DNA of 64,000 nt from an uncultured Alphaproteobacteria bacterium (GTDB taxonomy: Bacteria; Pseudomonadota; Alphaproteobacteria; HIMB59; GCA-002718135). Position numbers and translations under genes: made by a program. The stretch covers positions 586 through 64,585 of the forward strand of contig CACIED010000005.1 of assembly GCA_902585605.1 (NCBI GenBank), written 5' to 3'. How positions within the stretch are numbered: position 1 is the first letter of the stretch; each line of letters opens with the position of its first letter. The notes under the pieces are model-generated. The model ran no database searches, was not told where the DNA came from, and worked only from the letters and a program-made list of their open reading frames with translations. This document shows, piece by piece, positions 3,234 through 30,607 of the stretch.

Positions 3234-5048
3234 GTGGTTAGTGATTTATTATTTTCTCTTAGAGATGTAGAAATTAAATTTGGAAAAAAAATAATTTTTC
3301 AAGATTTAAATCTAAATTTACACAAAGGTGATATGATTGCACTTGTTGGTAAGAATGGTGTCGGAAAAACAACACTAATGAAAACTATAAATGGTGATCA
3401 AGATTTAGATTCTGGAGAATTATGGAGTTATCCAAATTTAAATGTTGGTTACTTCAATCAAAAATTTGAAAAATTAAATAACAAAACCATTCAAGAGAAT
3501 TTTTCAGACTTACTTAATGAACAAAATAAACATTTTGTTGATATATTTTGTAATAAACTCAATTTAGATAAACTTGCTAATGTTGAAAATCTTTCAGGAG
3601 GTCAAAAAAGAAAAGTTTACTTAATTAGATCTTTATTAAAAGACTCAGATGTTTTGTTATTAGATGAGCCTACCAATCATCTAGATTTGCAATGTATCGA
3701 ATGGTTAGAAAGTTATTTACGAAATTTAAATAAGACAATTATGTGTGTGAGCCATGATAGAACTTTTCTAAGTAATTTTACGAATAAAGTTTTTTGGATA
3801 GATAGAGGAAAATTACGAGTAAGTCCAAGAGGATTTAAGGATTTTGACAAATGGTCAGAGGAGTTACTCGATCAAGAATATAGAGAATTAAGAAATAGAA
3901 AGCAATTTGTCAACATTGAGCTCGAGTGGGCAAACAAAGGAGTAAAGGCGCGAGTTAAGCGAAATGAAAAAAGATTAAAAAGAGCGAAAGAATTAAAAGC
4001 AAAATTAGAAAAAGATGAAGCATCTTATAGAAGTGCAATAAAATCTTTAAGACCTCAAGTATCTAAAAAATCTACCGATCAATCTAAATTTATTGCTGAG
4101 CTCCAAGAAGTATTCGTAAAATATCCTAATCAAAGTGAATTTGTTTTTAAAAATCTATCTATCAAAATTTCAAAAAATGATCGTATTGGGCTTTTAGGTA
4201 ATAATGGGAGTGGTAAATCAACTTTTCTCCGGACCATTCTTAATGAAATTAAAATTACTAAAGGTAAAATTAAGTTGAAAAAAAATTTAGAATTTTCTTA
4301 TTTTGATCAGATGCGTAATGATCTTAATGGCAGAAAATCTATTAAAGATATCTTAGTACCCTCTGGAGGAGATTATTTAAAAGTTCAAGGAAGAGATAGG
4401 CATGTTTGTAGTTATGTGAAAGATTTTCAGTTTGATCCTAAAAATGTCAATCATACGATACAAACATTATCTGGAGGAGAGCAAAACAGATTACTTTTAG
4501 CAAAAGTATTAGCAAATCCCAAAACTGGACTTATTTTAGATGAGCCAACAAATGATCTAGATTTAGAAACATTAGATCTATTAACTGAAATGTTATCCAA
4601 TTATAATGGAACGTTATTAATAGTATCGCATGATCGAGATTTTTTAGATCAAACTGTAAATAAAATTCTACATTTTAAAGAGGATGGAAATGTATCATTG
4701 TTCTTTGGTGGATACAGTGATTTTTTGAAATCTGAAAATCAACAAGTTACTAAAAATAAAGAAACTAAAAAATCATATTCAGAAAACAACAAAGTAAAGA
4801 ATTCTAAAGCTAAACTATCATATAAGTTTCAATATGAATTAGAGCAATTACCAAACCAAATAAAAAATATTCAACAAGAATTAGAAGATATTAAAAATGA
4901 ATTAAAGGATACAAACCTATATTTGGAAAATTATGAACGCTATCAAGAAATAACTTCCAAAATGGAAGTTCTTAATAGTGATCTCAATACAAAAGAGAAT
5001 AGATGGTTTGAATTAATTAAAATGGAAGAGGATCTAGTTAGTAATTAA
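3234..5048 (+). CDS. ABC-F family ATPase (Uup-like, two ABC domains plus C-terminal coiled coil)
   Basis: Two Walker A motifs (GKNGVGKT, GNNGSGKS), two LSGG signatures (LSGGQKRK, LSGGEQNR), no TM segments, and a Lys/Glu-rich C-terminal coiled coil. GTG start. Confidence 0.85.
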   Translation: MVSDLLFSLRDVEIKFGKKIIFQDLNLNLHKGDMIALVGKNGVGKTTLMKTINGDQDLDSGELWSYPNLNVGYFNQKFEKLNNKTIQENFSDLLNEQNKHFVDIFCNKLNLDKLANVENLSGGQKRKVYLIRSLLKDSDVLLLDEPTNHLDLQCIEWLESYLRNLNKTIMCVSHDRTFLSNFTNKVFWIDRGKLRVSPRGFKDFDKWSEELLDQEYRELRNRKQFVNIELEWANKGVKARVKRNEKRLKRAKELKAKLEKDEASYRSAIKSLRPQVSKKSTDQSKFIAELQEVFVKYPNQSEFVFKNLSIKISKNDRIGLLGNNGSGKSTFLRTILNEIKITKGKIKLKKNLEFSYFDQMRNDLNGRKSIKDILVPSGGDYLKVQGRDRHVCSYVKDFQFDPKNVNHTIQTLSGGEQNRLLLAKVLANPKTGLILDEPTNDLDLETLDLLTEMLSNYNGTLLIVSHDRDFLDQTVNKILHFKEDGNVSLFFGGYSDFLKSENQQVTKNKETKKSYSENNKVKNSKAKLSYKFQYELEQLPNQIKNIQQELEDIKNELKDTNLYLENYERYQEITSKMEVLNSDLNTKENRWFELIKMEEDLVSN

Positions 5049-5055
5049 GCGACTA

Positions 5056-5844
5056 TTAATATGCGCTAGTATTATCAGATTTAGTATCTACATCTTTCAA
5101 TTCTTTTAATAAACTTTCAGCATGTGATGTCATCATTCTAAAATCAGAAAGTAAGGTGGTAAATTGAAAGCCATATTCCATCATTTCTTTCATATACTTA
5201 ACTGATCCATTATGAATTCCAGCAATCTTTCCTTTTTCTTTTGCTTTTTTTGCAATCATTTTTATGTTTGAAAATACCGGATCTTCACGAACATCAAATT
5301 TAGGTGGCAAACCATAAGAAGAACTCATATCTGCAGGCCCAATATAAATACCAGTTAAGTTTGGAACTGAAAGAATGGCATCTAAATTTTCTACTGCCTC
5401 TTTTGTTTCAACCATTGCTAAACTCACTATGTTGTTATTCGCATGCTTATGGTAATCTGATCCATATGCAACCTGAGCTCTCATTGGACCAAAACTTCTT
5501 TGTCCAATAGGGGGGTAATAACAATATGAAACAAACTTTTCGCAGTCCTCTTTTGTATTAATCATTGGTGCAATAATACCCTGAACTCCAAGATCTAACA
5601 TTTTCATAATAATTCCAGGCTCATTCCAAGGAACTCTTGTCATCGGAACAGTGTTACTATTTGATAATCCCTGAACCATCGCAATAGCAGTTGAATAGTC
5701 ATTTTGACCATGTTGCATATCAATTGTAACAGAATCCCATCCCATTTTTCCAAATGCTTCAGCTGTAAAAGAATTAGGAATTGATAGCCATGCATTTATA
5801 GATGCTTCATTTTTTCTCCATATGTCAAAGAGTGAGTTTTTCAT
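5056..5844 (-). CDS. HpcH/HpaI family aldolase (2-keto-3-deoxy-acid aldolase type)
   Basis: 262 aa. N-terminal pattern ..NAWLSIPNSFTAE..GWDSVTIDMQHG.. and overall size fit the HpaI/HpcH class II aldolases. Confidence 0.8.
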   Translation of the reverse strand: MKNSLFDIWRKNEASINAWLSIPNSFTAEAFGKMGWDSVTIDMQHGQNDYSTAIAMVQGLSNSNTVPMTRVPWNEPGIIMKMLDLGVQGIIAPMINTKEDCEKFVSYCYYPPIGQRSFGPMRAQVAYGSDYHKHANNNIVSLAMVETKEAVENLDAILSVPNLTGIYIGPADMSSSYGLPPKFDVREDPVFSNIKMIAKKAKEKGKIAGIHNGSVKYMKEMMEYGFQFTTLLSDFRMMTSHAESLLKELKDVDTKSDNTSAY

Positions 5845-5849
5845 AAAAT

Positions 5850-5867
5850 TTATTATTATTATTATTA
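5850..5867. repeat. (TTA)6 trinucleotide microsatellite
   Basis: Six perfect TTA units lie directly upstream of the aldolase start codon, in the divergent promoter region. Confidence 0.9.
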
Positions 5868-6005
5868 TATTTAAATATAATTACTATTAAAATTAACTCG
5901 TAAATATATAATTCTCAAACTTTAGAGGTATTTTGCCCTACTAAATACAATCAACTTGCAGTGATTTTAAAATTCTTTAATGTAATATTATTAAATGGAG
6001 GAATT

Positions 6006-7334
6006 ATGATTAAAACAGTAATAAGTTTTGTATCTGTAATTATTTTATCTACTTCTTTTTCTGCAATATCAAAAACCAAGGTAACTTGGTCGATGGAGTC
6101 TAATGCAGATAGAGACCCAATAATGATTGAAAAATTACAAAATGCTTACAACAATTCTCAAGGCAATTATGAACTCGTTATCGAATTTGAAGATAATGAA
6201 ACAAGATTAACTTCAATGAGAACTGCTATGATTGGTGGTATGGGTCCTGATATCGTCGAGACTCCTGGTCCATCTTATGTAAAAGAGTATCATGCAGCTG
6301 GTATGTTAGAAAATTTAGATTCATACGCTGCAGAATTTGGCTGGAAAGATAAGATGATACCTTGGGCTTATAGTTCAGGAGTTTTCGAAGGAAGTTTATA
6401 CGCAATTCCAAAAACTCATGAATCAATGGTTATGCTTTATAATAAAACTTTATTTGAAGAAAATAATTGGAAAGTACCAACAACATTAGAAGAATTAGAA
6501 GATGTTGCTGGCAAAATTAAAGCAAAAGGTATGAATGTATTTTCATATGGATCAGATGGATGGCAACCTACTCATGAACACCTTGTAGGAATTTATTTAA
6601 ATAACTATGCAGGTCCTCAAGCTGTATATGAAGCAATAATTGGTGAAAGAGAATGGACAGATCCTGTTTTTGTTGAAGCTCTTGAGTTACTTAAAAAACA
6701 TATGGTTGACGAGGGATATTGGTCTGGAAGCCTAGAAAATTATTATGCTATTGGATGGGATGATTTCCATGCTCAATTTGCTAATAGAGGGGCAGCTATG
6801 ATGACAATTGGTACTTGGACTTTTCAAGCAACACAATTAGGTATTGGTGCGAGCGGTGATGAATGGGGTTGGGCTCCACTTCCATCTCTATCTTCGCAAT
6901 CTCCAGATCCTAATTTTATGATTGCAATTGGTACAACTATGTCAGTTAATGCAAATGGTAAAAATAAAGATGGTGCGATAGATGTTTTAAACTGGATAAT
7001 GAGTAACAAAGACAAAGTTCTTGATATTGCTAAAGACTTTGAATTTGGAGAAATGGTAGTTCCATTAACTTTATCTAGCAGTGATATTCCAACTGATATT
7101 GCTCCTCAAGTTCAAGATTATCTAAGCGAATATGCAAGAATTACCGGCGAAGGTAATTATGGATATTGTACTTGGACTTTTTGGCCTGCTGACCCTGGTG
7201 TTCATATTTGGAAAGATATGGAAGTTGTATGGGCTGGCGATATATCAGTTGAAGATTTCTTATATGATCATCAAAAGATGTGGGATAAAGCTAGAAAGAA
7301 TGGCGACACTTTACCAGTTCCATTAAGGAACTAA
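6006..7334 (+). CDS. ABC transporter substrate-binding protein, carbohydrate (family 1) type
   Basis: Signal peptide MIKTVISFVSVIILSTSFSA. About 440 aa, Trp/Tyr-rich, typical of sugar-binding proteins. GGAGG sits 5 nt before the ATG at 6006, so the track's start at 5961 is probably an over-extension. Confidence 0.85.
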   Translation: MIKTVISFVSVIILSTSFSAISKTKVTWSMESNADRDPIMIEKLQNAYNNSQGNYELVIEFEDNETRLTSMRTAMIGGMGPDIVETPGPSYVKEYHAAGMLENLDSYAAEFGWKDKMIPWAYSSGVFEGSLYAIPKTHESMVMLYNKTLFEENNWKVPTTLEELEDVAGKIKAKGMNVFSYGSDGWQPTHEHLVGIYLNNYAGPQAVYEAIIGEREWTDPVFVEALELLKKHMVDEGYWSGSLENYYAIGWDDFHAQFANRGAAMMTIGTWTFQATQLGIGASGDEWGWAPLPSLSSQSPDPNFMIAIGTTMSVNANGKNKDGAIDVLNWIMSNKDKVLDIAKDFEFGEMVVPLTLSSSDIPTDIAPQVQDYLSEYARITGEGNYGYCTWTFWPADPGVHIWKDMEVVWAGDISVEDFLYDHQKMWDKARKNGDTLPVPLRN

Positions 7335-7347
7335 AATAAATATTAAA

Positions 7348-7371
7348 CAGTGAAGCTTCAAAGCTTCACTG
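7348..7371 (+). promoter_or_regulatory. Intercistronic stem-loop after the binding-protein gene
   Basis: Perfect CAGTGAAGCTT-CA-AAGCTTCACTG hairpin 13 nt after the stop codon with no U-tract. Such hairpins commonly stabilise or attenuate transcripts so that the binding protein is made in excess of the permeases. Confidence 0.5.
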
Positions 7372-7380
7372 TATCTAAAA

Positions 7381-8256
7381 ATGAAAATATTTTCTAATAA
7401 AAATTTTGTTGCTTGGTATTTTGTCTTTCCTGTTGCATTCATTCATTTATTTGTAATAGGTATTCCATCACTTGCAAGTTTAGCGTTATGTTTAACTGAC
7501 TGGAGAGGGCTTGGTGAAATAAATTATATTGGTTTTGAAAATTTTATAGAACTATTTGATGATAGATATCTTAAAAAGGCAATTATTAATAATGTAATCT
7601 GGACTATTGCTTTCCTAACTGTTCCAGTTGGAATCGCATTAACTTGTGCTTATCTACTTACAGGAATTAAAAGAGGCCAAATGTTTTTTCGACTTGCTTT
7701 CTTCTTTCCTTATATGCTCGCAAGTGTAATTAATTGTCAAATTTGGAAATATTTATTTCACCCAATTCATGGTCTCGGTGGTTTTTTTGAAAGGATCGGA
7801 TGGGAATTTTTAGCAGTATCTCCGTTTACAACAAAATCTACATCTTTATTTGCAGTAGCATTTGTTGATGGTTGGCATTTCTGGGGATTCCTTGTTGTTA
7901 TATATTTAACAGGTATGTATCAAGTAGATAATCATCTCTATGAAGCTGCAGATATTGAGGGAGCAACAAAATTTCAAAAATTTAGATACATAACTTTACC
8001 AATGATAAGACCAGTATTTATTTTTAGTATAATGATAATAATTATTTGGTCTGTTCCAGTATTTGATTATGTTTATATTTTAACGGGAGGTGGTCCCGCA
8101 TACAGCTCAGAAGTAATAGCAAACTATATGTATTCTCAAGCATTTGAGAGATTTGATGTCGGATACTCTTCAGCAATAGGAACATTAATGTTTTTTTATG
8201 TTATGATTATAGTTGCAATGTTTGGTCTTTTTAGAAGAGCCGGTTGGGATATCTAA
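7381..8256 (+). CDS. ABC sugar transporter permease (MalF/UgpA-like)
   Basis: 291 aa with 6 TM helices and an EAA loop (YEAADIEGATKFQKFRYITLP). Confidence 0.85.
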   Translation: MKIFSNKNFVAWYFVFPVAFIHLFVIGIPSLASLALCLTDWRGLGEINYIGFENFIELFDDRYLKKAIINNVIWTIAFLTVPVGIALTCAYLLTGIKRGQMFFRLAFFFPYMLASVINCQIWKYLFHPIHGLGGFFERIGWEFLAVSPFTTKSTSLFAVAFVDGWHFWGFLVVIYLTGMYQVDNHLYEAADIEGATKFQKFRYITLPMIRPVFIFSIMIIIIWSVPVFDYVYILTGGGPAYSSEVIANYMYSQAFERFDVGYSSAIGTLMFFYVMIIVAMFGLFRRAGWDI

Positions 8257-9092
8257 TGATAGTTGCAAAATATAGAAGAAGAGAAGTAATCTCCAATTAT
8301 ATAATACTAATTATATTTGCTTTGATAGCTATACTGCCTCTAGCAGTTCTTTTATTTAATTCAATTAAGCCTCAAATGGAGTTTGGAGTAAATCCACTTG
8401 GTCCTCCAAATGAAATTAGATTTGAAAATTTTAGTGAAGCTTGGGTTAAAGGAGAGTATGCTAAAGTTTTTTTTAATTCTTTAAAGTTAGTAGTTGGATC
8501 AGTATTTTTGTGCCTTGCAGTTTCACTTGCAGCGGGATTTAGTCTTGCAAAATTAAATCCAAAAGGATCTGCAATAATCGCTGTTTACCTTTTAGTTGGT
8601 ATAAGTATTCCTGCCCAGCTTTATATAGTACCATTGTTTTTATTATGGAAGGAGATACATCTTTTAAACACTCATACAGGTCTTATTATAATTTATACTG
8701 CTTTAAACGCCCCTTTTGCAACTTTTTTAATTAGATCTTATATGATAAGATTACCAGATGAGTTATTTGAAGCTGCAAGATTAGATGGAGCTAATACTTT
8801 TCAACTTTTTTTTAGGGTTGCCTTACCTCTTTCTTGGCCAGTTATTTTGACTGCAGGATTAATTATAGCTCTGGCAGTCTGGAATGAATTTTTATTTGCT
8901 TTAACTTTTATTAGCGAAGAAGGTTTTAAACCTATGGCTACTATATTATTTGCATTTCAGTGGAGGTTTGAAAATAATTACGCACTGCAAAGTGCATCAG
9001 CAATAATGATGGTTGCGCCTGTAGCAATTCTTTTTATGCTATTTCAAAGGAGATTTATTTCTGGGTTAACTAGTGGAGGTTTAAAAGGTTAA
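8256..9092 (+). CDS. ABC sugar transporter permease (MalG/UgpE-like)
   Basis: EAA loop FEAARLDGANTFQLFFRVALP. The ATG at 8256 overlaps the upstream stop codon by 1 nt (the first A of ATG is the last base of TAA). The track's start at 8244 is a non-ATG extension. Confidence 0.85.
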   Translation: MIVAKYRRREVISNYIILIIFALIAILPLAVLLFNSIKPQMEFGVNPLGPPNEIRFENFSEAWVKGEYAKVFFNSLKLVVGSVFLCLAVSLAAGFSLAKLNPKGSAIIAVYLLVGISIPAQLYIVPLFLLWKEIHLLNTHTGLIIIYTALNAPFATFLIRSYMIRLPDELFEAARLDGANTFQLFFRVALPLSWPVILTAGLIIALAVWNEFLFALTFISEEGFKPMATILFAFQWRFENNYALQSASAIMMVAPVAILFMLFQRRFISGLTSGGLKG

Positions 9093-11255
9093 ATGAATTA
9101 CAAGTTAGACAAAAATTATGAAGAAAAAGTTTATGCAGGTGTTTTGGGAAAAATTATAGGTGTTTTTCTTGGAAGACCATTTGAAAATTGGTCATATGAA
9201 AGAATAATGAAAGAGTTAGGACCTATTAATTATTATGTGAATGATAAATTAGATTTTCCACTACCAGTCTCTGATGATGATATTACTGGTACCTTTACTT
9301 TTTTACGTGCTTTTAGAGAATGTAACTATAATAAAAATATAACTGCAAAAGATATAGGCAAAACATGGTTGAATAATATTATTGAAGATAAAACAATATT
9401 GTGGTGGGGTGGAAAAGGGCATTCGGCAGAAGATACTGCCTTCCAGAATTTAAAACAAGGGATAAACGCACCACAAAGTGGATCTATTGAAACTAATGGC
9501 AAAGTTATAGCCGAACAAATAGGAGCTCAAATATTTATTGATGGTTGGGCAATGGTCTCACCAGGTGATCCAGAAAAAGCAGCACATTATGCGAAACTAG
9601 CTGCAAGTGTCAGTCATGATGGAGAAGCGATATATGGTGCTCAAATAGTAGCTGCTTTAGAGTCAATGGCATTTATAGAACATGATTTAAAAAAGTTAGT
9701 TGAGCAAGCTAAAAAATTTATCCCAAAAACATCAGTAATATTTAAATTAATATCTGACATCCAAGAGTGGAGTTCTGGAAATTTAGGATGGGAGCAGGCA
9801 AGGGAAAAAATTGTCGAGAATTATGGTTATGATAAATACTTAGGTAATTGTCATATGGTACCTAATCATGCATTAATAATTATGGCTTTACTATTTGGTG
9901 ATGATGATTTTCAAAAAACAATGATGATTGTTAATACTTCTGGTTGGGATACAGATTGTAATTCTGGAAATGTAGGATGTATTTTAGGAATAAAAAATGG
10001 AATTGATGGTCTTAAAAAAGGACCTGATTATTTGTCTCCTATTAATGATATATTATATTGCCCTTCTGCTTCAGGCGGGGAAACTCTAACTGACGCTTTA
10101 TCAGAAACTTATAAAATAATAAACACAACAAGAAAAATCAACGGACTTCCAGAAATATTACCTAAGAATGGAGCTAAATTTCATTTTGATATTAAGGATT
10201 CAACACAAGGATGGAGAATTGGGAATGGTGATCAATTTTGTGAAACAAAAATAAGCAACATTGAGTATAAATCTTATATAGGTGAAAGAGCTCTTGAGAT
10301 TTCTTATAACAACCTTTCAGTAGATAAAATTTCAGAGGTTTATGTCGAGACTTTTTTTCCTGAAATTATTCTTGGATTAGAGGGAAAAAAGAGAGAAGAC
10401 TTTTTCCATTATGATTATATTTCTTGTCCCACAATTTTCTCTGGACAAAAATTAAAAGTTGAAATTGAAAACAATTCACCTCATAAAGTTTCAATTGCAT
10501 TGTTTTCTAAGCATTGGGCTGAAGATGACAAACTTAAAAAAATTACTTCAAATATTTTTGAATTTAATAGTAATGAAAAAAAAGAAATATCTTGGGAAAT
10601 CCCAAATACTGATTCGAACCCTATAGGTCAAATTGGAATAGATATAATGTCAAACACAAATCAATCTGGTGAAGTTATTCTTAATTATGCCACCTTTGAA
10701 GGAGAACCAAAACAAATCTTTAAAAGACCTCAGCACATTGAAAGTTATAAAAGAGGTATAGAAAAAAAAGAGGGTTACTATGGTCAAATTTGGAGAAATG
10801 CTTGGGTACAAACTTTAGATAAATGGGAAGAAAGAGGAAAGAATTTTAGAATTTGTCAGAACATTGGTAGAGAAATTCTGTTTACAGGAACTGATTTATG
10901 GAAAGATTATTCAGTTTCGTCAAATATTCTTTTACAGTCATGTAACTCCGGTGGACTAGTCTCAAGAGCTCAGGGAGTTAAAAAATACTACACTCTAGAA
11001 ATTTGTAGAAATAATAAATTGAGAATAGGCAAGATGAATAATGATTATACAACACTTAAAGAAGTAGATTTTGAAGTAGAATTTTTTAAGGAGTATAATA
11101 TGAAAATGACTGTTAAAAAAAATAAAATAATAGGACAAATAAATGATAAAACTATTATTGAAATTGAAGATAATGATAATCCATTACTTAATGGAGGTTC
11201 TGGTTTAGTTGTTGAAAATGGAACTTTAGTTACAGATCAAATAACGCTAAGTTAA
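9093..11255 (+). CDS. ADP-ribosylglycohydrolase (ARH/DraG) fold domain fused to an uncharacterised C-terminal region of about 370 aa
   Basis: The N-terminal ~330 aa carry both ARH metal-binding signatures: VSDDDITGT (aa 59-67) and GWDTDCNSGNVG (aa 284-295). The C-terminal half is beta-rich. Its last ~150 aa (LWKDY..NSGGLVSR..GGSGLVVENG) are reminiscent of concanavalin/LamG-type modules. Confidence 0.75.
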   Translation: MNYKLDKNYEEKVYAGVLGKIIGVFLGRPFENWSYERIMKELGPINYYVNDKLDFPLPVSDDDITGTFTFLRAFRECNYNKNITAKDIGKTWLNNIIEDKTILWWGGKGHSAEDTAFQNLKQGINAPQSGSIETNGKVIAEQIGAQIFIDGWAMVSPGDPEKAAHYAKLAASVSHDGEAIYGAQIVAALESMAFIEHDLKKLVEQAKKFIPKTSVIFKLISDIQEWSSGNLGWEQAREKIVENYGYDKYLGNCHMVPNHALIIMALLFGDDDFQKTMMIVNTSGWDTDCNSGNVGCILGIKNGIDGLKKGPDYLSPINDILYCPSASGGETLTDALSETYKIINTTRKINGLPEILPKNGAKFHFDIKDSTQGWRIGNGDQFCETKISNIEYKSYIGERALEISYNNLSVDKISEVYVETFFPEIILGLEGKKREDFFHYDYISCPTIFSGQKLKVEIENNSPHKVSIALFSKHWAEDDKLKKITSNIFEFNSNEKKEISWEIPNTDSNPIGQIGIDIMSNTNQSGEVILNYATFEGEPKQIFKRPQHIESYKRGIEKKEGYYGQIWRNAWVQTLDKWEERGKNFRICQNIGREILFTGTDLWKDYSVSSNILLQSCNSGGLVSRAQGVKKYYTLEICRNNKLRIGKMNNDYTTLKEVDFEVEFFKEYNMKMTVKKNKIIGQINDKTIIEIEDNDNPLLNGGSGLVVENGTLVTDQITLS

Positions 11256-11257
11256 AT

Positions 11258-12241
11258 ATGAAATTTAGAAAATTTGGCTCTCTAGATTGGAATGTGTCTG
11301 AAATAGGTTTAGGCTGTTGGCAGATTGGCGCCGATTGGGGTAATGTAAGTGAAGAGAAAGCTAATGAGGTATTACAATCATCATTTGAAAATGGAGTAAA
11401 TTTTTTTGATACAGCTGATGTTTATGGTGATGGCAGAAGTGAAAAATTTGTCGGAAATTTCATAAATTCTATTTCTGAGAGAATTTATGTAGCAACAAAA
11501 GCTGGTAGGCGTATTAATCCACATGTTGCAAATGGTTATTATGATAAAGATTTAATGGAATCTTTTGTAGATCGATCTTTATTAAATCTAAATATTGAAA
11601 CAATTGACCTTTTACAAATGCACTGTCCACCAACAGAAGTTTATTCATCAGATCATACTTTTGAAATGTTAGATTATTTAGTAGATAAAGGGAAAATACA
11701 AAATTATGGTTTTAGTGTTGAAACAGTTGATCAAGCTTTAGAATGCATTAAAAACCCTAATACAAAATCAATTCAAGTCATCTTTAATATTTTTAGACAA
11801 AAACCTGCAGAAGAATTATTTAAGATTGCAAAAGAAAAAAAAGTAGCAATCATAATTAGAGTTCCTCTTGCTAGTGGCTTGTTGTCAGGAAAATTTAATA
11901 AAGATTCTACCTTTTCTTCAGATGATCATCGAAACTATAATATTAATGGTGATGCATTTGATGTTGGTGAAACATTCTCTGGAGTCAATTACTCAAAAGC
12001 TCTGGAAGCAGTAGAAGAACTCAAAAATATTATTCCAAGTGAAGTAACTCTTTCTCAATTATCTCTTAAATGGATATTAATGTATGAAGCTGTGAGTGTT
12101 GTAATTCCAGGTGCAAAAAATAGAGACCATGTAAATCTAAATACTGCCTCTAGCGAAGTTAATGAAATTTCTTCTTTAATGAATGAGATAAATAATATCT
12201 ATACAAAATATTTCTATGATGATGTACATCATCGTTGGTAA
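11258..12241 (+). CDS. Aldo/keto reductase family oxidoreductase
   Basis: GLGCWQIG..WG, FDTADVYGDGRSE and LDLLQMHCP-type motifs; 327 aa. Confidence 0.85.
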   Translation: MKFRKFGSLDWNVSEIGLGCWQIGADWGNVSEEKANEVLQSSFENGVNFFDTADVYGDGRSEKFVGNFINSISERIYVATKAGRRINPHVANGYYDKDLMESFVDRSLLNLNIETIDLLQMHCPPTEVYSSDHTFEMLDYLVDKGKIQNYGFSVETVDQALECIKNPNTKSIQVIFNIFRQKPAEELFKIAKEKKVAIIIRVPLASGLLSGKFNKDSTFSSDDHRNYNINGDAFDVGETFSGVNYSKALEAVEELKNIIPSEVTLSQLSLKWILMYEAVSVVIPGAKNRDHVNLNTASSEVNEISSLMNEINNIYTKYFYDDVHHRW

Positions 12242-12247
12242 TAAATT

Positions 12248-13393
12248 TTGTTAGAAGAAACTAAGATATTTAGAAGTGCAACTCTTGCATCAATAATAAC
12301 ATCAACTTATCCTATGATTGTTGTGGGATGTTACTTTGGCATAACACCGTGGAATATGAATAGGTTGTCAATTGATGAAACAGATTTGAGTTTTTCAATA
12401 TTAATTTTTGGAATTTTTTTTGTATTATCAAATCAAATTGCTGGAAGAATACTAGTTCCAAAATATGGAACAAGACGAGTAATGTCATTAGCTTTTCCTC
12501 TAATTACCTTTTCTTCATTGTTATCGATAACATCTTCATCATATTTATTATTTTTATTAACTTTCATTCCAGCTGGGATAGGATGGGGCGCTTCTGGACC
12601 AATTGGAGGCATTCATAGTCAACTAATTGAAAAACATTTTAAGAAAATTATTACCCCTTATTATGCTATGGGTTTCAATATTGGTATTCTTGTAGGTGGA
12701 GGTTTAGCTGGTATAATAATGCGCTATAACTTTGAGCCTTATATTATTTTTCTTGTTTTATCTTTTTCTTCAATTTTAGTTGCATTTATAGTTCTTCATT
12801 TGGGGCTACCTAGTAACTTAGATTTCAAAGGTAAAGGTGAAAAATTTAAAATTCCCGAGTCAAATGTTCTTATATTTGGTTTCTTGTTATTTTTTGTTTT
12901 TGGTTCTGGTGGTATAATTATGGATTGGTCAACATTGTGGTTATCCAAGGATTTGAATACCCCTCTTTATCTTGCAAGTACGGGATTAATTTTTTTTAGT
13001 ATTGGTGGTATTTTAGCTAATTTATTCTCTAACACCTTAATAAATATATTTACTGAAAAAGTTGTTGGATGTTATTTTGTGATGATTGGTTCTTCAATAT
13101 TGCTTTTGTCCTTATTAACAAATAATTTTTACATTATACTAGGTGTTTTATCTATCTATGGATTTGCAATAGCAAACTTAGTTCCTATAGTAATTCGCCA
13201 AGCTGTTAAGCAATCTAATGAGAGCATTCCTATGACTGTAACTAATTTAATAACTATTGGATTATCATCCACAATGATTATGCCAGCAGCAATTGGTTTT
13301 CTTGCAGAGACATTTTCCCTAACTTTAAATATGTATTTACTATGCATTATAGTATTTACTTCTGGACTAGTTTTTTTACTTAAGTTTAAATAA
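12248..13393 (+). CDS. MFS-type transporter (about 12 TM)
   Basis: 381-aa polytopic ORF with a GRILVPKYGTRR loop between TM2 and TM3 (MFS signature-like). TTG start; N-terminus uncertain. Confidence 0.6.
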   Translation: MLEETKIFRSATLASIITSTYPMIVVGCYFGITPWNMNRLSIDETDLSFSILIFGIFFVLSNQIAGRILVPKYGTRRVMSLAFPLITFSSLLSITSSSYLLFLLTFIPAGIGWGASGPIGGIHSQLIEKHFKKIITPYYAMGFNIGILVGGGLAGIIMRYNFEPYIIFLVLSFSSILVAFIVLHLGLPSNLDFKGKGEKFKIPESNVLIFGFLLFFVFGSGGIIMDWSTLWLSKDLNTPLYLASTGLIFFSIGGILANLFSNTLINIFTEKVVGCYFVMIGSSILLLSLLTNNFYIILGVLSIYGFAIANLVPIVIRQAVKQSNESIPMTVTNLITIGLSSTMIMPAAIGFLAETFSLTLNMYLLCIIVFTSGLVFLLKFK

Positions 13394-13398
13394 AAATT

Positions 13399-14205
13399 AT
13401 GAATAAATTAAAAATTTCTCAAGTACAATTTCAGGCAAGTCATATCCCAGCTTTAAATGCAGAAACTCTTAAAAAAAGTTTTAATAATGCATTAAAATAT
13501 AAACCTCACTTAATTTGTACACCGGAATGTTCAAACATTATTACTAATGATAAAAAATATTTAATATTAAATGCACCTTATCAAAACACCTGTCCAGTTT
13601 TGAAGATGGCAAAAGATTTCGCCAAAAAAAATAAAGTTACTATAAATCTTGGCTCCTTACTTTTAAAAGTTAAAAATCAGAGAAAACTTGTTAATAGATC
13701 TTATTTTATAAATATTAATGGAGATATAAAAAAAACATATGATAAGATTCATATGTTTGATGTTAAAATCAATAACAAAGAAAAACATCAAGAATCATTT
13801 TTATTTCGAGCTGGTAATAAGATAACTTATACAAAAATTAATAATATTAAAATAGGAATGACTATTTGTTATGATTTACGATTTCCTTCTTTATACAGGC
13901 AACTTGCCAAAAAAGATTGTTCAATTATTTTAGTTCCTGCTGCTTTTACTAGACCGACTGGGAAAGATCATTGGGAAATTTTAAATCGATCAAGGGCAAT
14001 AGAAAATAGTGTATTTATTGTAGCAACAGGTATGTGTGGAAATCATCATAAGAAAAGGAATACTTATGGGTATTCCCTTTTAGTTGATCCTTGGGGGAAG
14101 ATTGTAAATAACACTAAAAATAAACCTTCAATACTTAATTCAACTATTGAACTTTCCCATGTAATAAAAATAAGAAAAAAAATTCCTTCTTTAAAATATG
14201 AGTAA
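13399..14205 (+). CDS. Carbon-nitrogen hydrolase (nitrilase superfamily, Nit/omega-amidase-like)
   Basis: Glu-Lys-Cys triad contexts are present: TPECS, YDKIHMFD, ICYDLRFP. Confidence 0.85.
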   Translation: MNKLKISQVQFQASHIPALNAETLKKSFNNALKYKPHLICTPECSNIITNDKKYLILNAPYQNTCPVLKMAKDFAKKNKVTINLGSLLLKVKNQRKLVNRSYFININGDIKKTYDKIHMFDVKINNKEKHQESFLFRAGNKITYTKINNIKIGMTICYDLRFPSLYRQLAKKDCSIILVPAAFTRPTGKDHWEILNRSRAIENSVFIVATGMCGNHHKKRNTYGYSLLVDPWGKIVNNTKNKPSILNSTIELSHVIKIRKKIPSLKYE

Positions 14206-14821
14206 TTTTAAATCTTTAGTTTCAGGTGTTGGTAATTTAAGTAAAACAAAGAAATACTATGATGATTGGTCAGAAAATTATGATGAAACACTAAAGTTAT
14301 GGAATTATCAAGCGCCCAAAAAAAGTATAAAATTTTTAACGGAAACACTTACCATCAAACCAAAAAATATATTAGACTTAGCATGTGGAACTGGTTTATT
14401 TGGTATTGAGTTAAAAAAAATTTATCCAAAAAGTAATATCTATGGTTCTGATATTTCGAAAAAAAGCTTGAAAATTTCATCAGAAAAAAAAATTTATATA
14501 AAATTAAAATATAAAAATTTTGAAAAATTACATAATTATAATACAAAATTTGATTTAATTTCTTTAATCGGTTCTATGACATATTGTAAAAACTTTAAAA
14601 AACTTTTTGCTAACATTAATAAAAATATTAAAAAAAAAGGCTTTGTGTTATTTACACATAGAGTTGATTTATGGAAGCAGCAGGATTTTTTCAATGTTTT
14701 AAAAAAACATCAAATGACATTCAAAATCACTAAAATTTCTAGACCACTAAATTATTTACCTTTGAATAGAGATTTTAAAAACAAAATAAAAATCAAGATT
14801 GTTTTGTTACAAAAATATTAA
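14198..14821 (+). CDS. Class I SAM-dependent methyltransferase
   Basis: Motif I ILDLACGTGLFG. Overlaps the upstream gene by 8 nt. Confidence 0.75.
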   Translation: MSNFKSLVSGVGNLSKTKKYYDDWSENYDETLKLWNYQAPKKSIKFLTETLTIKPKNILDLACGTGLFGIELKKIYPKSNIYGSDISKKSLKISSEKKIYIKLKYKNFEKLHNYNTKFDLISLIGSMTYCKNFKKLFANINKNIKKKGFVLFTHRVDLWKQQDFFNVLKKHQMTFKITKISRPLNYLPLNRDFKNKIKIKIVLLQKY

Positions 14822-14913
14822 AAATTACAAATTTTTTGATTAAAAATTTGAGCCCCAGCCTAGAATCGGGTATTTGTTAGAAAGGTTTATATTCTATCCA
14901 TAAACCAAGAATG

Positions 14914-14946
14914 AAAAGAAGGGATATTCGCCGTGTCCCTTCTTTT
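14914..14946. terminator. Bidirectional intrinsic terminator between convergent genes
   Basis: 11-bp stem AAAAGAAGGGA / TCCCTTCTTTT with an 11-nt loop. The A-run and T-run flanks let it work on both strands (methyltransferase on +, mntR on -). Confidence 0.6.
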
Positions 14947-14985: not shown

Positions 14986-15390
14986 TTATTTTTTTGAATT
15001 AAAACGGTCCATTTTTCTAAGAGTTTTTTTGCTTACATGATGTTCAATACCTTCAGCGTCTTCATATGCCGTATTCTTATCCAATCCGAGATTTATTAAA
15101 AAATTATATACTATATTATGTCTCTTTTTTGATTCACTGGCAATTTTTTGACCTTTCAAAGTTAAGAAAATTGAGCGATAAGGTTCTCTTTTAATATAAC
15201 CCTGTGATTGTAACCTTTGTATTGTTTTATTGGCTGTAGCTTGTGCAATACCCAAGCTTTCAGCAATATCAACGATACGAGCTTCCCCTTTAGAATTTAG
15301 AAGTTCTGCAATAAGCTCTAAATAATCTTCAGTATTTTCTGTTTTATGAGCATTTCTAACTTTACTGAACGACATTCCCATATTTAACAT
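14986..15390 (-). CDS. mntR: Manganese-responsive transcriptional regulator MntR (DtxR family, single-domain E. coli type)
   Basis: Collinear with E. coli MntR as I recall it: VR.AH..E..DY.ELI..L...GEAR.VD.A..LG..Q.T..K...RL, FLT..G.K.A.ES..RH.IV.NFL..LG, DAEG.EHHVS..TL. The true start may be an internal Met (15381 or 15375). Confidence 0.8.
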   Translation of the reverse strand: MLNMGMSFSKVRNAHKTENTEDYLELIAELLNSKGEARIVDIAESLGIAQATANKTIQRLQSQGYIKREPYRSIFLTLKGQKIASESKKRHNIVYNFLINLGLDKNTAYEDAEGIEHHVSKKTLRKMDRFNSKK

Positions 15391-15455: not shown

Positions 15456-16607
15456 ATGAATGCTCTAATTAATGCCATTAATGAAAAAACTAAAATAATT
15501 CTTGAGAATGATGGAAGATTATTAAAGAAATCATTTTTTGGTCTATTATTACTTTCTCTTGTTTTTCAAGGAGGAGAGTTTGGAGAAGTTATACGATCAT
15601 CAATGGTAGATGCTTATATCCAGGTATCTGTTTTTGTAGGATTTACTCTGTTTGTTTTTATTGGATTAGATAGTTTAACAAAGTTTGATGTAAAGAATTT
15701 TTTATCTAAGACACAAAAGTTCCATGTCGGTATAGCTGCTTTTTTAGGTGCCATACCTGGATGTGGTGGAGCTATAATAGTTGTGACGCAGTATATACAG
15801 GGACGTATTTCTTTTGGCTCCTTAGTAGCTGTATTAACAGCAACAATGGGAGATGCTGCTTTCTTAATACTTGCTATTGAGCCTTCAACTGGTTTTTTAA
15901 TATTTGGAATTGGAATAGTTGTTGGATCAATTTCTGGATATGTAATCGATTTTATCCATGGCACAAACTTTATGCAAGCAAAAACAAAAATAAAAGTTGA
16001 ATTTGAAAAAATAAATAAAACTTTTGTATCTAATTTTAACTTCTTTTGGCTTTTTTTATTTATTCCTGGTTTTGTTTTAGGAATTTTAGTTGCGTTTCAA
16101 ATTGAATTTGTATCTTCAATTTATAATTCATTATTAGTGTTGATTGCTTCTGCTGGAGCAATACTTTCAATATTTATGTGGTCATTAAATCCTTTAAGTG
16201 ATTTTCAATGTTCAACTGACAAAAGTAGAGGATTACTATCAAGAGTAGTAGATACAACTAATTTTGTAACTACTTGGGTAATTAGTGGTTTCCTTGTTTT
16301 TGAAATCTTTATGTACTTTACAAGTTTAGATTTAAAAATATTTTTTGATTTATGGCTTCCATTTATTCCATTGATAGCAATTTTATTTGGTTTCTTACCA
16401 GGATGTGGGCCTCAAGTTGTGGTGGCAACGTTTTATCTAAATGGTTATATTCCACTTTCTGCAGAATTAGGTAATGCAATCTCAAATGATGGTGATGCTT
16501 TATTTCCAGCAATAGCTCTTGCACCAAAAGCTGCAATTTTAGCGACACTTTATAGCGGAATACCTGCATTAGTGGTTGCCTATGGGTATTTTTTCATATT
16601 CGAGTAA
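15456..16607 (+). CDS. Polytopic membrane protein with duplicated PGCG motifs; putative MntX-type Mn2+ transporter
   Basis: 383 aa, about 10 TM, with two repeat halves each carrying a PGCGG/PGCGP motif. It is divergent from mntR and shares the operator. The MntX family was reported in marine bacteria including SAR11 (Green, Todd and Johnston 2013, as I recall). It has no Nramp or MntP features. Confidence 0.5.
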   Translation: MNALINAINEKTKIILENDGRLLKKSFFGLLLLSLVFQGGEFGEVIRSSMVDAYIQVSVFVGFTLFVFIGLDSLTKFDVKNFLSKTQKFHVGIAAFLGAIPGCGGAIIVVTQYIQGRISFGSLVAVLTATMGDAAFLILAIEPSTGFLIFGIGIVVGSISGYVIDFIHGTNFMQAKTKIKVEFEKINKTFVSNFNFFWLFLFIPGFVLGILVAFQIEFVSSIYNSLLVLIASAGAILSIFMWSLNPLSDFQCSTDKSRGLLSRVVDTTNFVTTWVISGFLVFEIFMYFTSLDLKIFFDLWLPFIPLIAILFGFLPGCGPQVVVATFYLNGYIPLSAELGNAISNDGDALFPAIALAPKAAILATLYSGIPALVVAYGYFFIFE

Positions 16608-29024: not shown

Positions 29025-30455
29025 CTACACGTCGTAGTATAGTTTAAACTCGTGTGGATGAGGTCTAATATTAATCGGGTCAACCTCACTCTCTTTTTTA
29101 TAGCTAATATAAGTTTCAATTACATCTTTGGTGAATACATCACCCTCTAATAAAAATGCATGATCTTTTTCAAGAGCTTCAAGAGATTCAGCTAAAGATC
29201 CAGGCGTAGATTGAATTTTAGACAAAACTTCATCGCTAGCAGCATAGAGATTTATATCTGTTGGATCACCAGGATTAATTTTATTTTTAATTCCATCTAA
29301 TCCTGCCATTAACATTGCTGAGAATGCTAAGTATGGATTTGCACTTGGATCTGGACATCTAAACTCCATTCTTTTTGCTTTAGGGCTTTGAGAATAAGCA
29401 GGAATTCTAACAGATGCAGTTCTATTTCTTTGAGAGTAAACAATGTTCACCGGAGCCTCAAAGCCTGGGACCAATCTTTTATAAGAATTAGTAGTAGGAG
29501 CACAAAAAGCTAAAAGAGCAGGTGCATGTTTAAGTATACCGCCAATATAATTTAGAGCTAAATCACTTAGGTTAGCATAGTTACCCTCTTTATACATTAA
29601 TGTGTCACCGTCTTTCCAAACACTTTGATGAACGTGCATACCTGAACCATTATCTTCGAATAAAGGTTTAGGCATAAATGTAGCTGTCATTCCATGTTGT
29701 CTAGCAACATTTTTAACAACGTACTTATATTTCATCATGTCATCAGCCATTTTTAGTAAAGGCGAAAATTCTAAATCAATTTCACATTGTCCACCTGTTG
29801 CAACTTCATGGTGATGTGCTTCAACTGTAAGACCAATGTCTTGCATTGTCATTACCATTTCAGTTCTTACATCTTGAAGTGTATCAACTGGCGGTAAAGG
29901 AAAATAACCTTCTTTATGTCTAGGCTTATGACCTAAGTTTGGATTTTCATCAGCACCACTATTCCAAGTACCTTCAACAGAATCAACTTCATGAAATGCA
30001 AAATTTGATCCTGAGTCAAACTGAACGTTATTAAACACAAAAAATTCTGCTTCTGGACCAAAAAATGCTGTGTCACCGATACCAGATGATTTCAAATAAG
30101 CTTCAGCTTTTTTAGCAATATTTCTTGGATCACGACTATAGTCAACCAAAGTTACAGGATCTTTAATATTACAATGTAATGCCAAAGTTTTTTCTGAAAA
30201 AAATGGATCAATATAGGCTGTTGTTGCATCTGGCAAAACAATCATATCACTGTCTTGAATTTCTTGGAAACCTCTTACTGAAGATCCATCAAAACCAAGT
30301 CCATCAGAAAATATATCTTCGTCTAAAAATTTAATTGGTATTGTAAAATGTTGAGTTGTTCCTGGTATATCAGTAAAGCGCATATCAACCATCTTAATGT
30401 CCATATCTTTAATTTCAGACATTAAATCTTTTGGAGTCGAGCTTTTTAATTTCAT
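29025..30455 (-). CDS. glnA: Glutamine synthetase type I
   Basis: 476 aa; [52 protein letters not shown]. Confidence 0.95.
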
Positions 30456-30596: not shown

Positions 30597-30607
30597 TTAT
30601 AACTTTT

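Follow-up and report, generated by a model that had tools for sequence, protein, structure and literature searches.

SAR11, an abundant ocean bacterium, carries a six-gene accessory cassette (positions 6006-13393 of the 64-kb stretch of DNA analyzed, hereafter the window) in which the genes for a sugar-type ABC importer accompany a gene for a 720-aa fusion enzyme with an ADP-ribosylhydrolase (ARH) fold. This cassette, and not a single eight-gene pathway, is the functional unit. We consider it reasonably probable that the cassette imports a riboside or ribose-containing glycoside and hydrolyzes it in the cytoplasm. If this is true, then SAR11 pairs a sugar-type importer with an ADP-ribosylhydrolase-fold enzyme that releases ribose from a ribose-containing compound, as judged by the partners of these genes elsewhere.

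Eight tightly packed genes precede a terminator

The original prediction had described a string of eight same-strand ORFs, which we confirmed at 5961-14821 with domain calls that are all backed by Pfam and NCBIfam. From 5′ to 3′, the SBP gene is followed by a gap of 46 nt, the two permease genes overlap by 13 nt, the next four junctions have gaps of 0, 2, 6, and 5 nt, and the last two genes overlap by 8 nt. The features of the region are as follows.

5056-5844, minus strand: HpcH/HpaI-type aldolase, divergent (Pfam/NCBIfam)
5950-5965, plus strand: leader motif ATCAACTTGCAGTGAT, an imperfect palindrome ~40 nt 5′ of the SBP start
6006-7334, plus strand: solute-binding protein (SBP), start corrected (ORF 5961-7334); PF01547/PF13416
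7347-7372, plus strand: intra-operon stem-loop 3′ of the SBP gene; 11-bp perfect stem, -16.7 kcal/mol, z = -6.5
7381-8256, plus strand: ABC permease 1, MalF/UgpA-like; PF00528, NCBIfam best matches GlcT/UgpA
8244-9092, plus strand: ABC permease 2, MalG/UgpE-like; PF00528, NCBIfam best matches GlcU/UgpE/MalG
9093-11255, plus strand: 720-aa ARH fusion; PF03747, E 6e-51
11258-12241, plus strand: aldo/keto reductase (AKR), AKR11-like; PF00248, E 1e-59
12248-13393, plus strand: MFS transporter; PF07690
13399-14205, plus strand: Nit-family amidase (Nit); NCBIfam best match deaminated-glutathione amidase, below cutoff
14198-14821, plus strand: SAM methyltransferase (MT); Pfam/NCBIfam
14914-14946, plus strand: intrinsic terminator, stem then T-run; -18.7 kcal/mol, z = -6.1
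14986-15390, minus strand: transcription factor DtxR/MntR, just past the terminator

The SBP gene had been taken to start at 5961, but the invariant GGAGG at 5997-6001 and the aligned sequences of seven relatives point to the ATG at 6006 as the probable start. The resulting 442-aa protein has a predicted Sec signal peptide, and we assign it as the periplasmic binding protein of a CUT1 (sugar/oligosaccharide-type) ABC importer. Its closest solved relatives are xylo-oligosaccharide- and chitobiose-binding proteins (E 1e-25 to 1e-19). The leader yielded no Rfam family match and no significant fold (z = -0.4); the motif ATCAACTTGCAGTGAT is mostly invariant in seven SAR11 relatives while the flanking intergenic DNA varies, and it could serve as a promoter or operator. 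The stem-loop that follows the SBP gene has no T-run on the plus strand and is probably an mRNA-stabilizing or decoupling hairpin that would give an excess of SBP transcript.

The terminator sits between the convergent MT and MntR genes, where it ends the Nit-MT unit and hence also any transcript that reads through from the cassette. Note that an automatic terminator scan missed this element because its loop exceeds the 8-nt limit of the scan. The earlier statement that there is no transcription factor needs a correction: the DtxR/MntR gene lies just beyond the terminator, where it and the gene for an ArsP_2 transporter make up a metal unit of their own. The only ABC ATPases in the 64-kb window are an ABC-F protein (3234-5048) and LolD (58547-59236), and none of the genes within it encodes a MalK/UgpC-type ATPase, a LacI/GntR regulator, or a ribokinase.

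The cassette is inserted into a conserved SAR11 backbone

Gene order was compared in a sample of 80 genomes and 80 marine metagenome contigs. The SAR11 backbone is conserved as ABC-F–HpcH on one side and Nit–MT–MntR–ArsP2–MurA on the other, terminator included, and the six cassette genes (SBP, two permeases, ARH fusion, AKR, and MFS) are present or absent between HpcH and Nit. Empty and occupied sites were both seen among the metagenome contigs, with HpcH adjoining Nit in approximately 35 of the 58 informative ones, and in one additional locus (L009) the backbone is contiguous and the ABC and fusion genes reside elsewhere. The HpcH aldolase is a backbone gene that flanks the insertion site and lies outside the cassette. 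Nit, which starts 5 nt 3′ of the cassette, and MT are backbone genes that are probably just co-transcribed with it in this genome, in agreement with a caveat already attached to the original prediction.

That prediction had nevertheless proposed a single pathway comprising all eight genes and the divergent aldolase, wherein a compound is de-glycosylated, the AKR and aldolase act on the sugar, and the amidase and methyltransferase act on a nitrogenous aglycone. The tight same-strand packing and the single terminator in the window are consistent with this scheme, but synteny already contradicts it and we find it scarcely tenable. With no cassette between them, the backbone genes HpcH, Nit, MT, MntR, and ArsP2 adjoin one another in most related populations, and HpcH, Nit, and MT never accompany the fusion gene outside SAR11 in the loci examined. 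Moreover, the best match of Nit is a housekeeping enzyme. Because Nit belongs to the backbone, the amidase has no demonstrated role on a nitrogenous aglycone.

The fusion enzyme combines an ARH domain with two β-sandwiches

The 720-aa protein consists of an intact ARH catalytic domain (residues 1-350), a β-sandwich (360-545), and a CBM66-like domain (585-720). An AlphaFold model (pTM 0.84; active-site loops 98-148 at low confidence) was used with Foldseek to match the N-terminal domain to ARH3 and DraG, and the C-terminal domain to CBM66 (TM 0.74, rmsd 1.8 Å) and the GALC lectin domain. A profile match to CBM66 was also obtained (E 7e-4), and some homologs match PF21708, the galactocerebrosidase C-terminal lectin domain. 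Residues E31, D61-D63, and D286-T287-D288 are invariant, and these acidic metal-site motifs are kept from SAR11 to Anaerolineae. In contrast to the SBP, the fusion has no predicted signal peptide, and we predict that it is the cytoplasmic, glycosidic bond-cleaving enzyme of the cassette. Among paralogs and distant orthologs alike, the catalytic domain is 63-74% conserved and the β-sandwiches 25-45%, a pattern consistent with a sugar that stays the same and a partner that varies.

The importer and fusion genes form a quartet with ribose-linked neighbors

Within the cassette, four genes, those for the SBP, the two permeases, and the ARH fusion, make up the conserved core. This quartet was seen in SAR11-like single-cell genomes (SAGs), SAR116, Rhodobacteraceae, Rhizobium, Agrobacterium, Chloroflexota, Deinococcota, Trueperaceae, and Cellvibrionaceae. 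The proposed linkage of the fusion to the ABC genes extends far beyond SAR11: permease 1 is kept with the fusion across phyla, and permease 2 lies directly upstream on the same strand in 23 of the 51 distant loci with enough upstream sequence. Annotated Rhizobium and Agrobacterium plasmids have this arrangement too. Linked ABC genes are absent from 21 of 36 well-covered loci, a point against the model given below.

Outside SAR11, the partners of the quartet are LacI/RbsR-like regulators, UgpC/MalK ATPases, ribokinase, RbsD, extra ARH paralogs, and occasionally nucleoside hydrolases. Rhizobium loci have the order LacI-SBP-P1-P2-ARHfus-UgpC; one strand of an A. tumefaciens plasmid encodes LacI, two permeases, SBP, ARH, ARH fusion, UgpC, and ribokinase; and SAR116/Rhodobacteraceae loci include LacI and a MalK-type ATPase. 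One other SAR11 population retains a GntR/UTRA regulator. The lack of an ATPase and a regulator, which had been presented as a trait of the system, is thus best read from these gene orders as a lineage-specific reduction. The neighboring ribokinase, found in 14 loci, scores 337 bits on TIGR02152 (cutoff 299.65), RbsD is encoded inside one locus (L029), and an IU nucleoside hydrolase gene is packed against the fusion gene in two others (L030 and L062). The best NCBIfam match of the LacI regulator is RbsR, and it also matches the UriR model, with a below-cutoff score of 150 bits. A census of the 128 nearest neighbors gave LacI (16-17), extra ARH (12), and PfkB (10) as the top families. These recurrent partners lend real support to the ribosylated substrate that had been suggested. 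Overall, the original interpretation is partly supported, in its ABC linkage and its substrate idea, but not in the roles given to HpcH and the amidase or in an ATPase- and regulator-less system.

A model for cassette function and its alternatives

The analysis establishes the gene content, the borders of the cassette, the linkage across phyla, the domain layout of the fusion with its intact catalytic signature, and purifying selection. We infer ribose as the product from gene neighborhood only, and the kind of substrate, an ATPase that acts in trans, and the AKR and MFS roles are likewise proposals. In our model, the periplasmic CUT1-type SBP would capture a small ribose-containing glycoside or riboside, which the two permeases would import with energy from a MalK/UgpC-type ATPase whose gene lies at another genomic site. 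The metal-dependent ARH active site of the cytoplasmic fusion would then cut the ribosyl glycosidic bond, with the two CBM-like β-sandwiches perhaps reading the variable partner, either an aglycone or a neighboring sugar. In larger genomes, co-encoded RbsD and ribokinase would handle the freed ribose and a LacI/RbsR-like repressor would control the locus. The SAR11 cassette is a streamlined version that has lost the regulator, ATPase, and kinase and is accompanied by AKR and MFS, to which we tentatively assign the processing or transport of either product. The lack of a ribokinase and a suitable ATPase in the window makes the fate of ribose and the energizing subunit in SAR11 points that count against this reading.

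The closest structures to the AKR are IolS and YhdN. Its gene follows the fusion in every full SAR11 cassette seen and in no distant locus, and AKR and MFS join the quartet in SAR11 only. The AKR might reduce the aglycone or the released sugar, and the MFS protein, whose gene is kept with ARH-AKR in a variant that lacks the ABC genes (L007), might act either in uptake or in aglycone export. On one short contig (L084), the AKR gene directly adjoins HpcH. The AKR and MFS genes may thus form a unit of their own, which is a point against the cassette reading.

A different possibility, which we judge unlikely, is that the fusion acts as a glycosidase on a sugar other than ribose, for example on another furanoside (fructo-, arabino-, or galactofuranoside), wherein an ordinary oligosaccharide is imported, the ARH fold has been recruited as a new glycoside hydrolase scaffold, and the ribokinase association is partial. 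Terminal fructofuranosides are the ligands of CBM66, to which the C-terminal domain is similar, the closest solved relatives of the SBP bind xylo- and chito-oligosaccharides, and approximately 55 of 69 distant loci have no nearby ribokinase. In addition, the neighbors of the fusion gene in a Deinococcus locus are of the ordinary glycosidase kind (GH2, a trehalase-family enzyme, and a ricin lectin), which allows for a non-ribose sugar. However, the only recurrent sugar-specific partners are the above-cutoff ribokinase, RbsD, RbsR-like regulators, and nucleoside hydrolases. The neighbor census shows no enrichment of any further family of sugar kinases or isomerases, and, to our knowledge, all characterized ARH-fold enzymes (such as ARH1, ARH3, and DraG) act at C1″ of a ribose. 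Still less probable is that the fusion removes ADP-ribose from a modified protein, nucleic acid, or small molecule, like DraG, ARH1, ARH3, and Tri1, in a regulatory, repair, or immunity role with an incidental link to transport. Its Pfam membership, its structural likeness to ARH3 and DraG, and its intact metal-site residues typical of ADP-ribosylhydrolases agree with such a role. Yet the gene is packed in operons with a CUT1 importer across phyla (in the window the gap is 0 nt), its usual partners are LacI-type sugar repressors and ribokinase, and CBM-like domains such as its two typify carbohydrate-active enzymes. None of the neighborhoods examined contained an ADP-ribosyltransferase, a nitrogenase, or a toxin as partner, and the tandem arrays of four fusion paralogs found in some SAR11 populations fit substrate diversification better than a regulatory switch.

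The missing ATPase, regulator, and kinase could also mean that the SAR11 cassette is a decaying, nonworking remnant, and partly deleted variants exist that lack the ABC genes (L007 and L085) or carry a broken second ARH copy (L083). We regard this as improbable, because all six ORFs are intact and their dN/dS values (0.02-0.15; SBP 0.03-0.09, fusion ~0.09) are the same as those of housekeeping neighbors. The cassette is under purifying selection and probably still in use. It is also frequent in metagenomes, where each cluster contains hundreds of sequences, and populations carry from zero to four fusion paralogs. Furthermore, most Chloroflexota loci likewise have no linked ATPase, and CUT1 systems in several phyla share one common ATPase, such as MsiK.

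Relation to known systems

Homology and literature searches found no characterized relative of the system and no description of the fusion family, and neither the SBP nor the hydrolase mapped to a characterized pathway. As in the ARH family (PF03747: ARH1, ARH3, DraG, and Tri1), the N-terminal 350 aa form an all-α fold that superposes on ARH3/DraG, and the acidic metal-binding motifs DDD 61-63 and DTD 286-288 are retained together with E31. However, identity to any solved ARH is at most ~14%, the two extra C-terminal β-sandwiches are not known from any characterized ARH, and the gene resides in sugar-uptake operons and not beside ADP-ribosyltransferases or nitrogenase. The substrate is probably not a protein.

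The importer resembles CUT1 systems that use a common ATPase (MalEFGK, UgpBAEC, and the MsiK-dependent NgcEFG and BxlEFG) in its SBP_bac_1 protein and two BPD_transp_1 permeases, its BxlE-, NgcE-, and NagB-like closest solved SBPs, the hairpin 3′ of the SBP gene, and a frequently unlinked ATPase gene. It differs in that its ABC proteins reach no NCBIfam equivalog cutoff and the accompanying hydrolase is ARH-fold and not a CAZy glycoside hydrolase. The uridine-utilization operon uriR-rbsK-uriT-uriH of Corynebacterium, along with riboside salvage based on IU nucleoside hydrolase (IU-NH), is similar in that one operon encodes a transporter and a ribokinase together with a LacI-type regulator and an enzyme that hydrolyzes ribosyl bonds, but there the hydrolase is IU-NH and the transporter is MFS instead of ABC, although the SAR11 cassette has an MFS gene as well.

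Residues 585-720 of the fusion superpose on CBM66, the module of Bacillus subtilis levanase SacC, and resemble the GALC lectin domain (PF21708), but here the module is intracellular and joined to an ARH domain. Some Bacteroidetes ribose-utilization (Rus) loci contain predicted ADP-ribosylglycohydrolases (Glowacki et al., 10.1101/574913), which is a precedent in favor of our model. These loci follow the same logic, in that a transporter, ribokinase(s), and a regulator are combined with variable hydrolases that free ribose from ribose-containing nutrients (10.1101/574913). Their uptake relies on SusC/D-type outer-membrane proteins and the RusT permease in place of a CUT1 ABC importer, and that work does not describe the ARH-CBM66 fusion or its presence in Proteobacteria, Chloroflexota, and Deinococcota (10.1101/574913).

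Layout of the gene string and its signals

As originally predicted, the window (~29% G+C) carries eight same-strand genes, whose coordinates and spacings were reproduced by an ORF listing and whose predicted domains were each confirmed by Pfam and NCBIfam. They encode a family-1 substrate-binding protein (SBP), two BPD_transp_1 permeases (P1 and P2), a 720-aa fusion protein with an ARH domain (9093–11255, + strand), an aldo/keto reductase (AKR), an MFS_1 transporter, a CN_hydrolase protein (Nit) whose top NCBIfam match, deaminated-glutathione amidase, falls under the cutoff, and a class-I SAM methyltransferase (MT). The divergent gene encodes an HpcH/HpaI aldolase. Both the hairpin predicted behind the SBP gene (7347–7372) and the terminator at 14914–14946 are real, with stability z values of −6.5 and −6.1, respectively, relative to shuffled controls. 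An alignment of the SBP leaders of seven relatives revealed an invariant GGAGG followed by an ATG at 6006, and therefore we assign the SBP 442 aa from 6006, including a typical Sec signal peptide.

An imperfect palindrome (ATCAACTTGCAGTGAT, 5950–5965) is kept in the SBP leaders of regulator-less SAR11 cassettes and could be a promoter element or an operator for a regulator encoded elsewhere. A riboswitch or structured leader that replaces the lost regulator was considered and rejected, as no Rfam match was found in 5700–7500 and the fold of the leader is not significant (z = −0.4).

A six-gene cassette within a conserved backbone

Species-representative genomes were scanned with the 720-aa protein, which yielded at least 561 relatives, and the best 80 loci were analyzed. 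Among these 80, the gene order SBP–permease–permease–ARH fusion recurs in SAR11-like SAGs, one Rhodobacteraceae, one SAR116, many Chloroflexota, one Trueperaceae, and one Cellvibrionaceae, and the AKR, MFS, Nit, MT, and HpcH genes lie beside the fusion gene only in the closest relatives. Upstream sequence of at least 3.5 kb was available for 51 distant loci, and in 23 of them the second permease gene is located directly upstream of the fusion gene and on the same strand. The linkage of the ARH fusion to ABC genes, which had been set as a test of the original prediction, thus holds beyond SAR11.

The boundaries of the unit were revealed by loci in which its parts are separated. In L009, a locus whose fusion protein is 72% identical to that of the window, the genes for ABC-F, HpcH, Nit, MT, MntR, and ArsP2 form an uninterrupted block, and the quartet of SBP, permease, and fusion genes resides elsewhere. 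A metagenome scan with HpcH provided 58 contigs that are informative on the divergent side. HpcH adjoins Nit–MT–MntR–ArsP2–MurA in ~35 of these, with an M24 peptidase gene between them in a few, and the cassette lies between HpcH and Nit in ~14–16. These findings assign HpcH, Nit, MT, and the terminator to the backbone and define the cassette as SBP–P1–P2–ARH–AKR–MFS (6006–13393). The original proposal that the eight genes and the aldolase form one unit is therefore abandoned, and its suspicion that Nit and MT might be unrelated genes that are merely co-transcribed agrees with their synteny. Because the cassette ends 5 nt before Nit, transcription from the cassette promoter probably continues into the Nit–MT genes in this genome. 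The backbone proteins of the window fall into clusters of at least 90% identity shared with NCBI 'Pelagibacteraceae bacterium' proteins, which assigns the window to SAR11.

The AKR–MFS pair may in turn be a unit that is independent of ARH genes. The sole case pointing to such independence is a short contig (L084), whereas all long contigs with AKR also carry ARH genes.

A divergent DtxR/MntR-type metalloregulator gene (14986–15390, − strand) and a gene for an ArsP_2 10-TM metal transporter (15456–16607, + strand) are located directly past the terminator. Although ARH enzymes need metal, these genes are a conserved backbone pair unrelated to the cassette.

A CUT1-type importer

The SBP matches PF01547 and PF13416 and carries the signal peptide MIKTVISFVSVIILSTSFSA, and both permeases match PF00528 with top NCBIfam matches to GlcT/UgpA and GlcU/UgpE/MalG, as is characteristic of CUT1 systems. 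The absence of an ATPase for the importer, claimed in the original prediction, was confirmed in that no MalK/UgpC/MsiK-type ATPase (with a TOBE/OB domain) is encoded within the 64-kb window. Its two ABC ATPases were rejected as importer subunits, one being an ABC-F, Uup/EttA-like translation factor (3234–5048) and the other LolD (58547–59236), which lies beside a LolC/E-type permease. A MalK/UgpC-type ATPase gene does adjoin the orthologous quartet in L011–L013, Rhizobium, and Agrobacterium. Because CUT1 systems commonly share one ATPase, and because most Chloroflexota loci also are without a linked one, an ATPase acting in trans is plausible.

Likewise, neither a ribokinase gene, the kinase expected of a ribose locus, nor a LacI or GntR gene for a ribose-responsive regulator was found within the 64-kb window. 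NCBIfam, sequence, and profile homology searches mapped neither the SBP nor the fusion protein to a characterized pathway. Public annotation is generic for the SBP ('raffinose/stachyose/melibiose transport system substrate-binding protein') and reads 'ADP-ribosylglycohydrolase' for the fusion.

An ARH-fold enzyme with two β-sandwich domains

The fusion protein matches PF03747 over residues 16–308 with 174.3 bits (gathering score 26.2; E 6e-51). An AlphaFold2 model (pTM 0.84) predicts an α-helical ARH domain (1–350), with low-confidence loops at 98–148, followed by two β-sandwiches (~360–545 and 585–720). By using Foldseek, the ARH domain was matched with probability 1.00 to ARH3 (TM 0.64–0.66) and DraG (TM 0.70). 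Residues E31, D61-D62-D63, T67, and D286-T287-D288, which we take to correspond to the binuclear-metal and catalytic motifs of ARH3 and DraG, do not vary across 31 diverse homologues and the four SAR11 paralogues described below. Judged from its sequence, modeled fold, and motifs, the protein belongs to the ARH superfamily, and it carries no signal peptide. Its architecture, its genomic setting, and the probable class of its substrate set it apart from every characterized ARH.

The C-terminal 380 aa yielded no Pfam match at E values up to 5, and the identity of this region came only from structure prediction and the family profile. The last domain adopts a predicted CBM66-like fold (Foldseek TM 0.74, rmsd 1.8 Å over 141 columns), and the family profile matches CBM66 by sequence (hmmsearch, E 7e-4). 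This domain also matches the galactocerebrosidase lectin domain by Foldseek, and PF21708 was matched in some homologues. The two β-sandwiches together resemble tandem CBMs (Foldseek). A sequence search of the PDB with the fusion protein gave marginal matches only, and Pfam and NCBIfam detected in it the ARH domain alone and no GH domain.

When the double β-sandwich alone served as the query, 308 representative clusters (50% identity) were recovered at E 1e-10 or better, mostly fusions of ~700–720 aa and some stand-alone proteins of ~380 aa. Four of the latter (P0173, P0175, P0178, and P0180) consist of the double β-sandwich module only, with the match running from about residue 27 on. Such stand-alone proteins could be split-gene or secreted versions.

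Variation and selection in SAR11

The compared SAR11 contigs and loci (L numbers) differ in the content of the cassette site, and the population-level variation in fusion gene copy number is notable.

Variants of the cassette site in SAR11
Empty site: ~35 contigs
One fusion gene: the window, L161, L081
ABC genes missing: L007, L085
Second fusion copy, broken: L083
GntR/UTRA regulator upstream of SBP, and GSDH-type dehydrogenase: L140, L148
Four tandem fusion paralogues (721, 734, 720, and 719 aa) before AKR–MFS: L166, L162–L165

The four paralogues of the largest array (L166:5592–14347; also L162–L165) lie between the permeases and AKR, are catalytically intact by motif, and share 51–71% mutual identity. 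The L166 population is abundant, and for a streamlined genome the array represents a large investment. With only 55–57% identity to each paralogue, the fusion protein of the window represents a further subtype. The full catalytic signature is present in all fusion copies. The paralogues are 69–74% identical to the window protein in the ARH domain and 38–45% identical in the β-sandwich domains, and the corresponding values for an Anaerolineae orthologue are 63% and 25–29%.

For the six cassette genes compared with four relatives, dN/dS ranges from 0.02 to 0.15, which is indistinguishable from the values for MurA and ArsP2. Per-gene identities are mosaic across the cassette, indicating recombination within it.

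In L140, a gene for a GntR/UTRA (HutC-type) regulator (9230–9916, − strand) lies directly upstream of the SBP gene, and a gene for a soluble glucose/sorbosone dehydrogenase (GSDH; 695–1762, + strand) lies between MFS and Nit. L148 has the same layout.

Partner genes in other bacteria

We clustered and annotated the neighbors of the fusion gene in 69 distant loci. LacI regulators with RbsR as top match are present in 20, a ribokinase over the TIGR02152 equivalog cutoff in 14, and a second, single-domain ARH in 11; further partners are MalK/UgpC ATPases, RbsD (L029), and another PfkB kinase (L021 and L078). A Pfam census of the 128 nearest neighbors ranked LacI (16–17), ARH (12), and PfkB (10) at the top, with sporadic MalK, IU nucleoside hydrolase (IU-NH), and PGM/PMM. 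Two IU-NH genes that abut the fusion gene were found by phmmer with an E. coli RihA query sequence, and the census independently gave two IU_nuc_hydro members. Hydrolysis of (ADP-)ribosyl bonds by the fusion is putative and receives indirect support from the ribokinase, RbsD, and IU-NH neighbors.

A plasmid of A. tumefaciens HAMBI 105 encodes on one strand LacI, two permeases, SBP, ARH (401 aa), ARH fusion (699 aa), UgpC, and ribokinase, and plasmids of Rhizobium jaguaris and Rhizobium sp. 11515TR carry LacI–SBP–P1–P2–ARH fusion–UgpC. The fusion gene of Deinococcus aetherius is surrounded by genes for GH2, SBP, a fused permease, a ricin-domain protein, and a trehalase-family glycosidase.

Three other arrangements were observed. 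In Enterobacter hormaechei CP103578.1, a 517-kb 'plasmid' record from a clinical isolate, a three-gene LacI–ARH fusion–SBP insert with no permeases annotated (L168:7963–12422) is flanked by chiP and glnS, and the surrounding region is chromosome-like. In marine or sponge-associated Chloroflexota (L056, L061, L063, L072, L074, and L075), a γ-glutamyltransferase gene lies upstream of an SBP–permease–ARH fusion–ribokinase block. In SAR324 (L045:3831–6231 and L065:2681–7314), the fusion gene is followed by genes for an HD-domain phosphohydrolase and an endonuclease/exonuclease/phosphatase-family protein, an arrangement hinting that some members of the fusion family may act on phosphorylated substrates.

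Proposed function and its significance

The most economical reading is that the cassette is a nutrient-acquisition module. The CUT1 importer would take up a small glycoside that contains ribose, or a riboside, and its ribosyl bond would be broken in the cytoplasm by the ARH-fold enzyme. Ribose would then enter metabolism via RbsD and RbsK where these are encoded. SAR11 would have shed the regulator, ATPase, and kinase, with the ATPase supplied in trans, and AKR and MFS may reduce one of the hydrolysis products and export or import it. Together, the fast evolution of the β-sandwiches and the arrays of paralogues point to a sugar that stays constant and partners that vary. Substrates we considered include α-ribofuranosides, disaccharide nucleosides such as ribosyl-adenosine, ribosyl-amino acids, and ribofuranose-containing oligosaccharides.

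A more specific proposal, which we regard as possible but somewhat short of probable, is that ARH–CBM66 fusions form a family of cytoplasmic ribofuranosidases that spans phyla, has gone unrecognized, and lies outside the CAZy GH families. SAR11 would harvest ribosylated compounds from marine DOM with one to four specialized paralogues, their number varying among populations and one CUT1 importer feeding them, and the β-sandwiches would set aglycone specificity.

The nearest conceptual precedent for the cassette is the Bacteroidetes Rus system, which has predicted ADP-ribosylglycohydrolases among its variable hydrolases (10.1101/574913). A search for literature on ARH enzymes with ribokinase, ABC or sugar transport, SAR11, or rhizobia returned only this preprint as relevant. 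The ADP-ribosylglycohydrolase gene SAR11_1227 was merely listed in a 2007 SAR11 paper, and in one SAR11 genomics paper (PMC12636525) the nucleoside salvage given as core to the family is solely phosphorolytic. The cassette is of the same kind as known catabolic loci that combine importer, hydrolase, and kinase but differs by its unexplored catalytic scaffold.

SAR11 is the most abundant heterotroph of the surface ocean and has extremely streamlined genomes. The maintenance of a 7 to 14 kb cassette under purifying selection in such genomes, with up to four paralogues, argues for a real, ecologically variable resource. To our knowledge, neither the fusion enzyme family nor its transporter includes a characterized member, and imported ribose-containing glycosides and ribosides are absent from current models of SAR11 carbon use. 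If our proposal is true, carbohydrate-active enzymes would gain a new catalytic scaffold and the labile pool of marine DOM a new class of compounds. Because the core module is also present in the culturable and tractable A. tumefaciens HAMBI 105, Rhizobium jaguaris, Deinococcus aetherius, Dictyobacter, and Enterobacter hormaechei, the identity of the substrate is directly testable.

Other features of the window

Upstream of a glutamine synthetase gene (29025–30455, − strand) lie two glutamine riboswitch aptamers in tandem (30540–30661, − strand), each matching RF01739 with 64 bits, and a P-II family gene (30703–31044, − strand) is located immediately upstream of the aptamers. The latter gene is noteworthy in that one report (PMC3870248) describes the model strain HTCC1062 as being without GlnB/GlnK.
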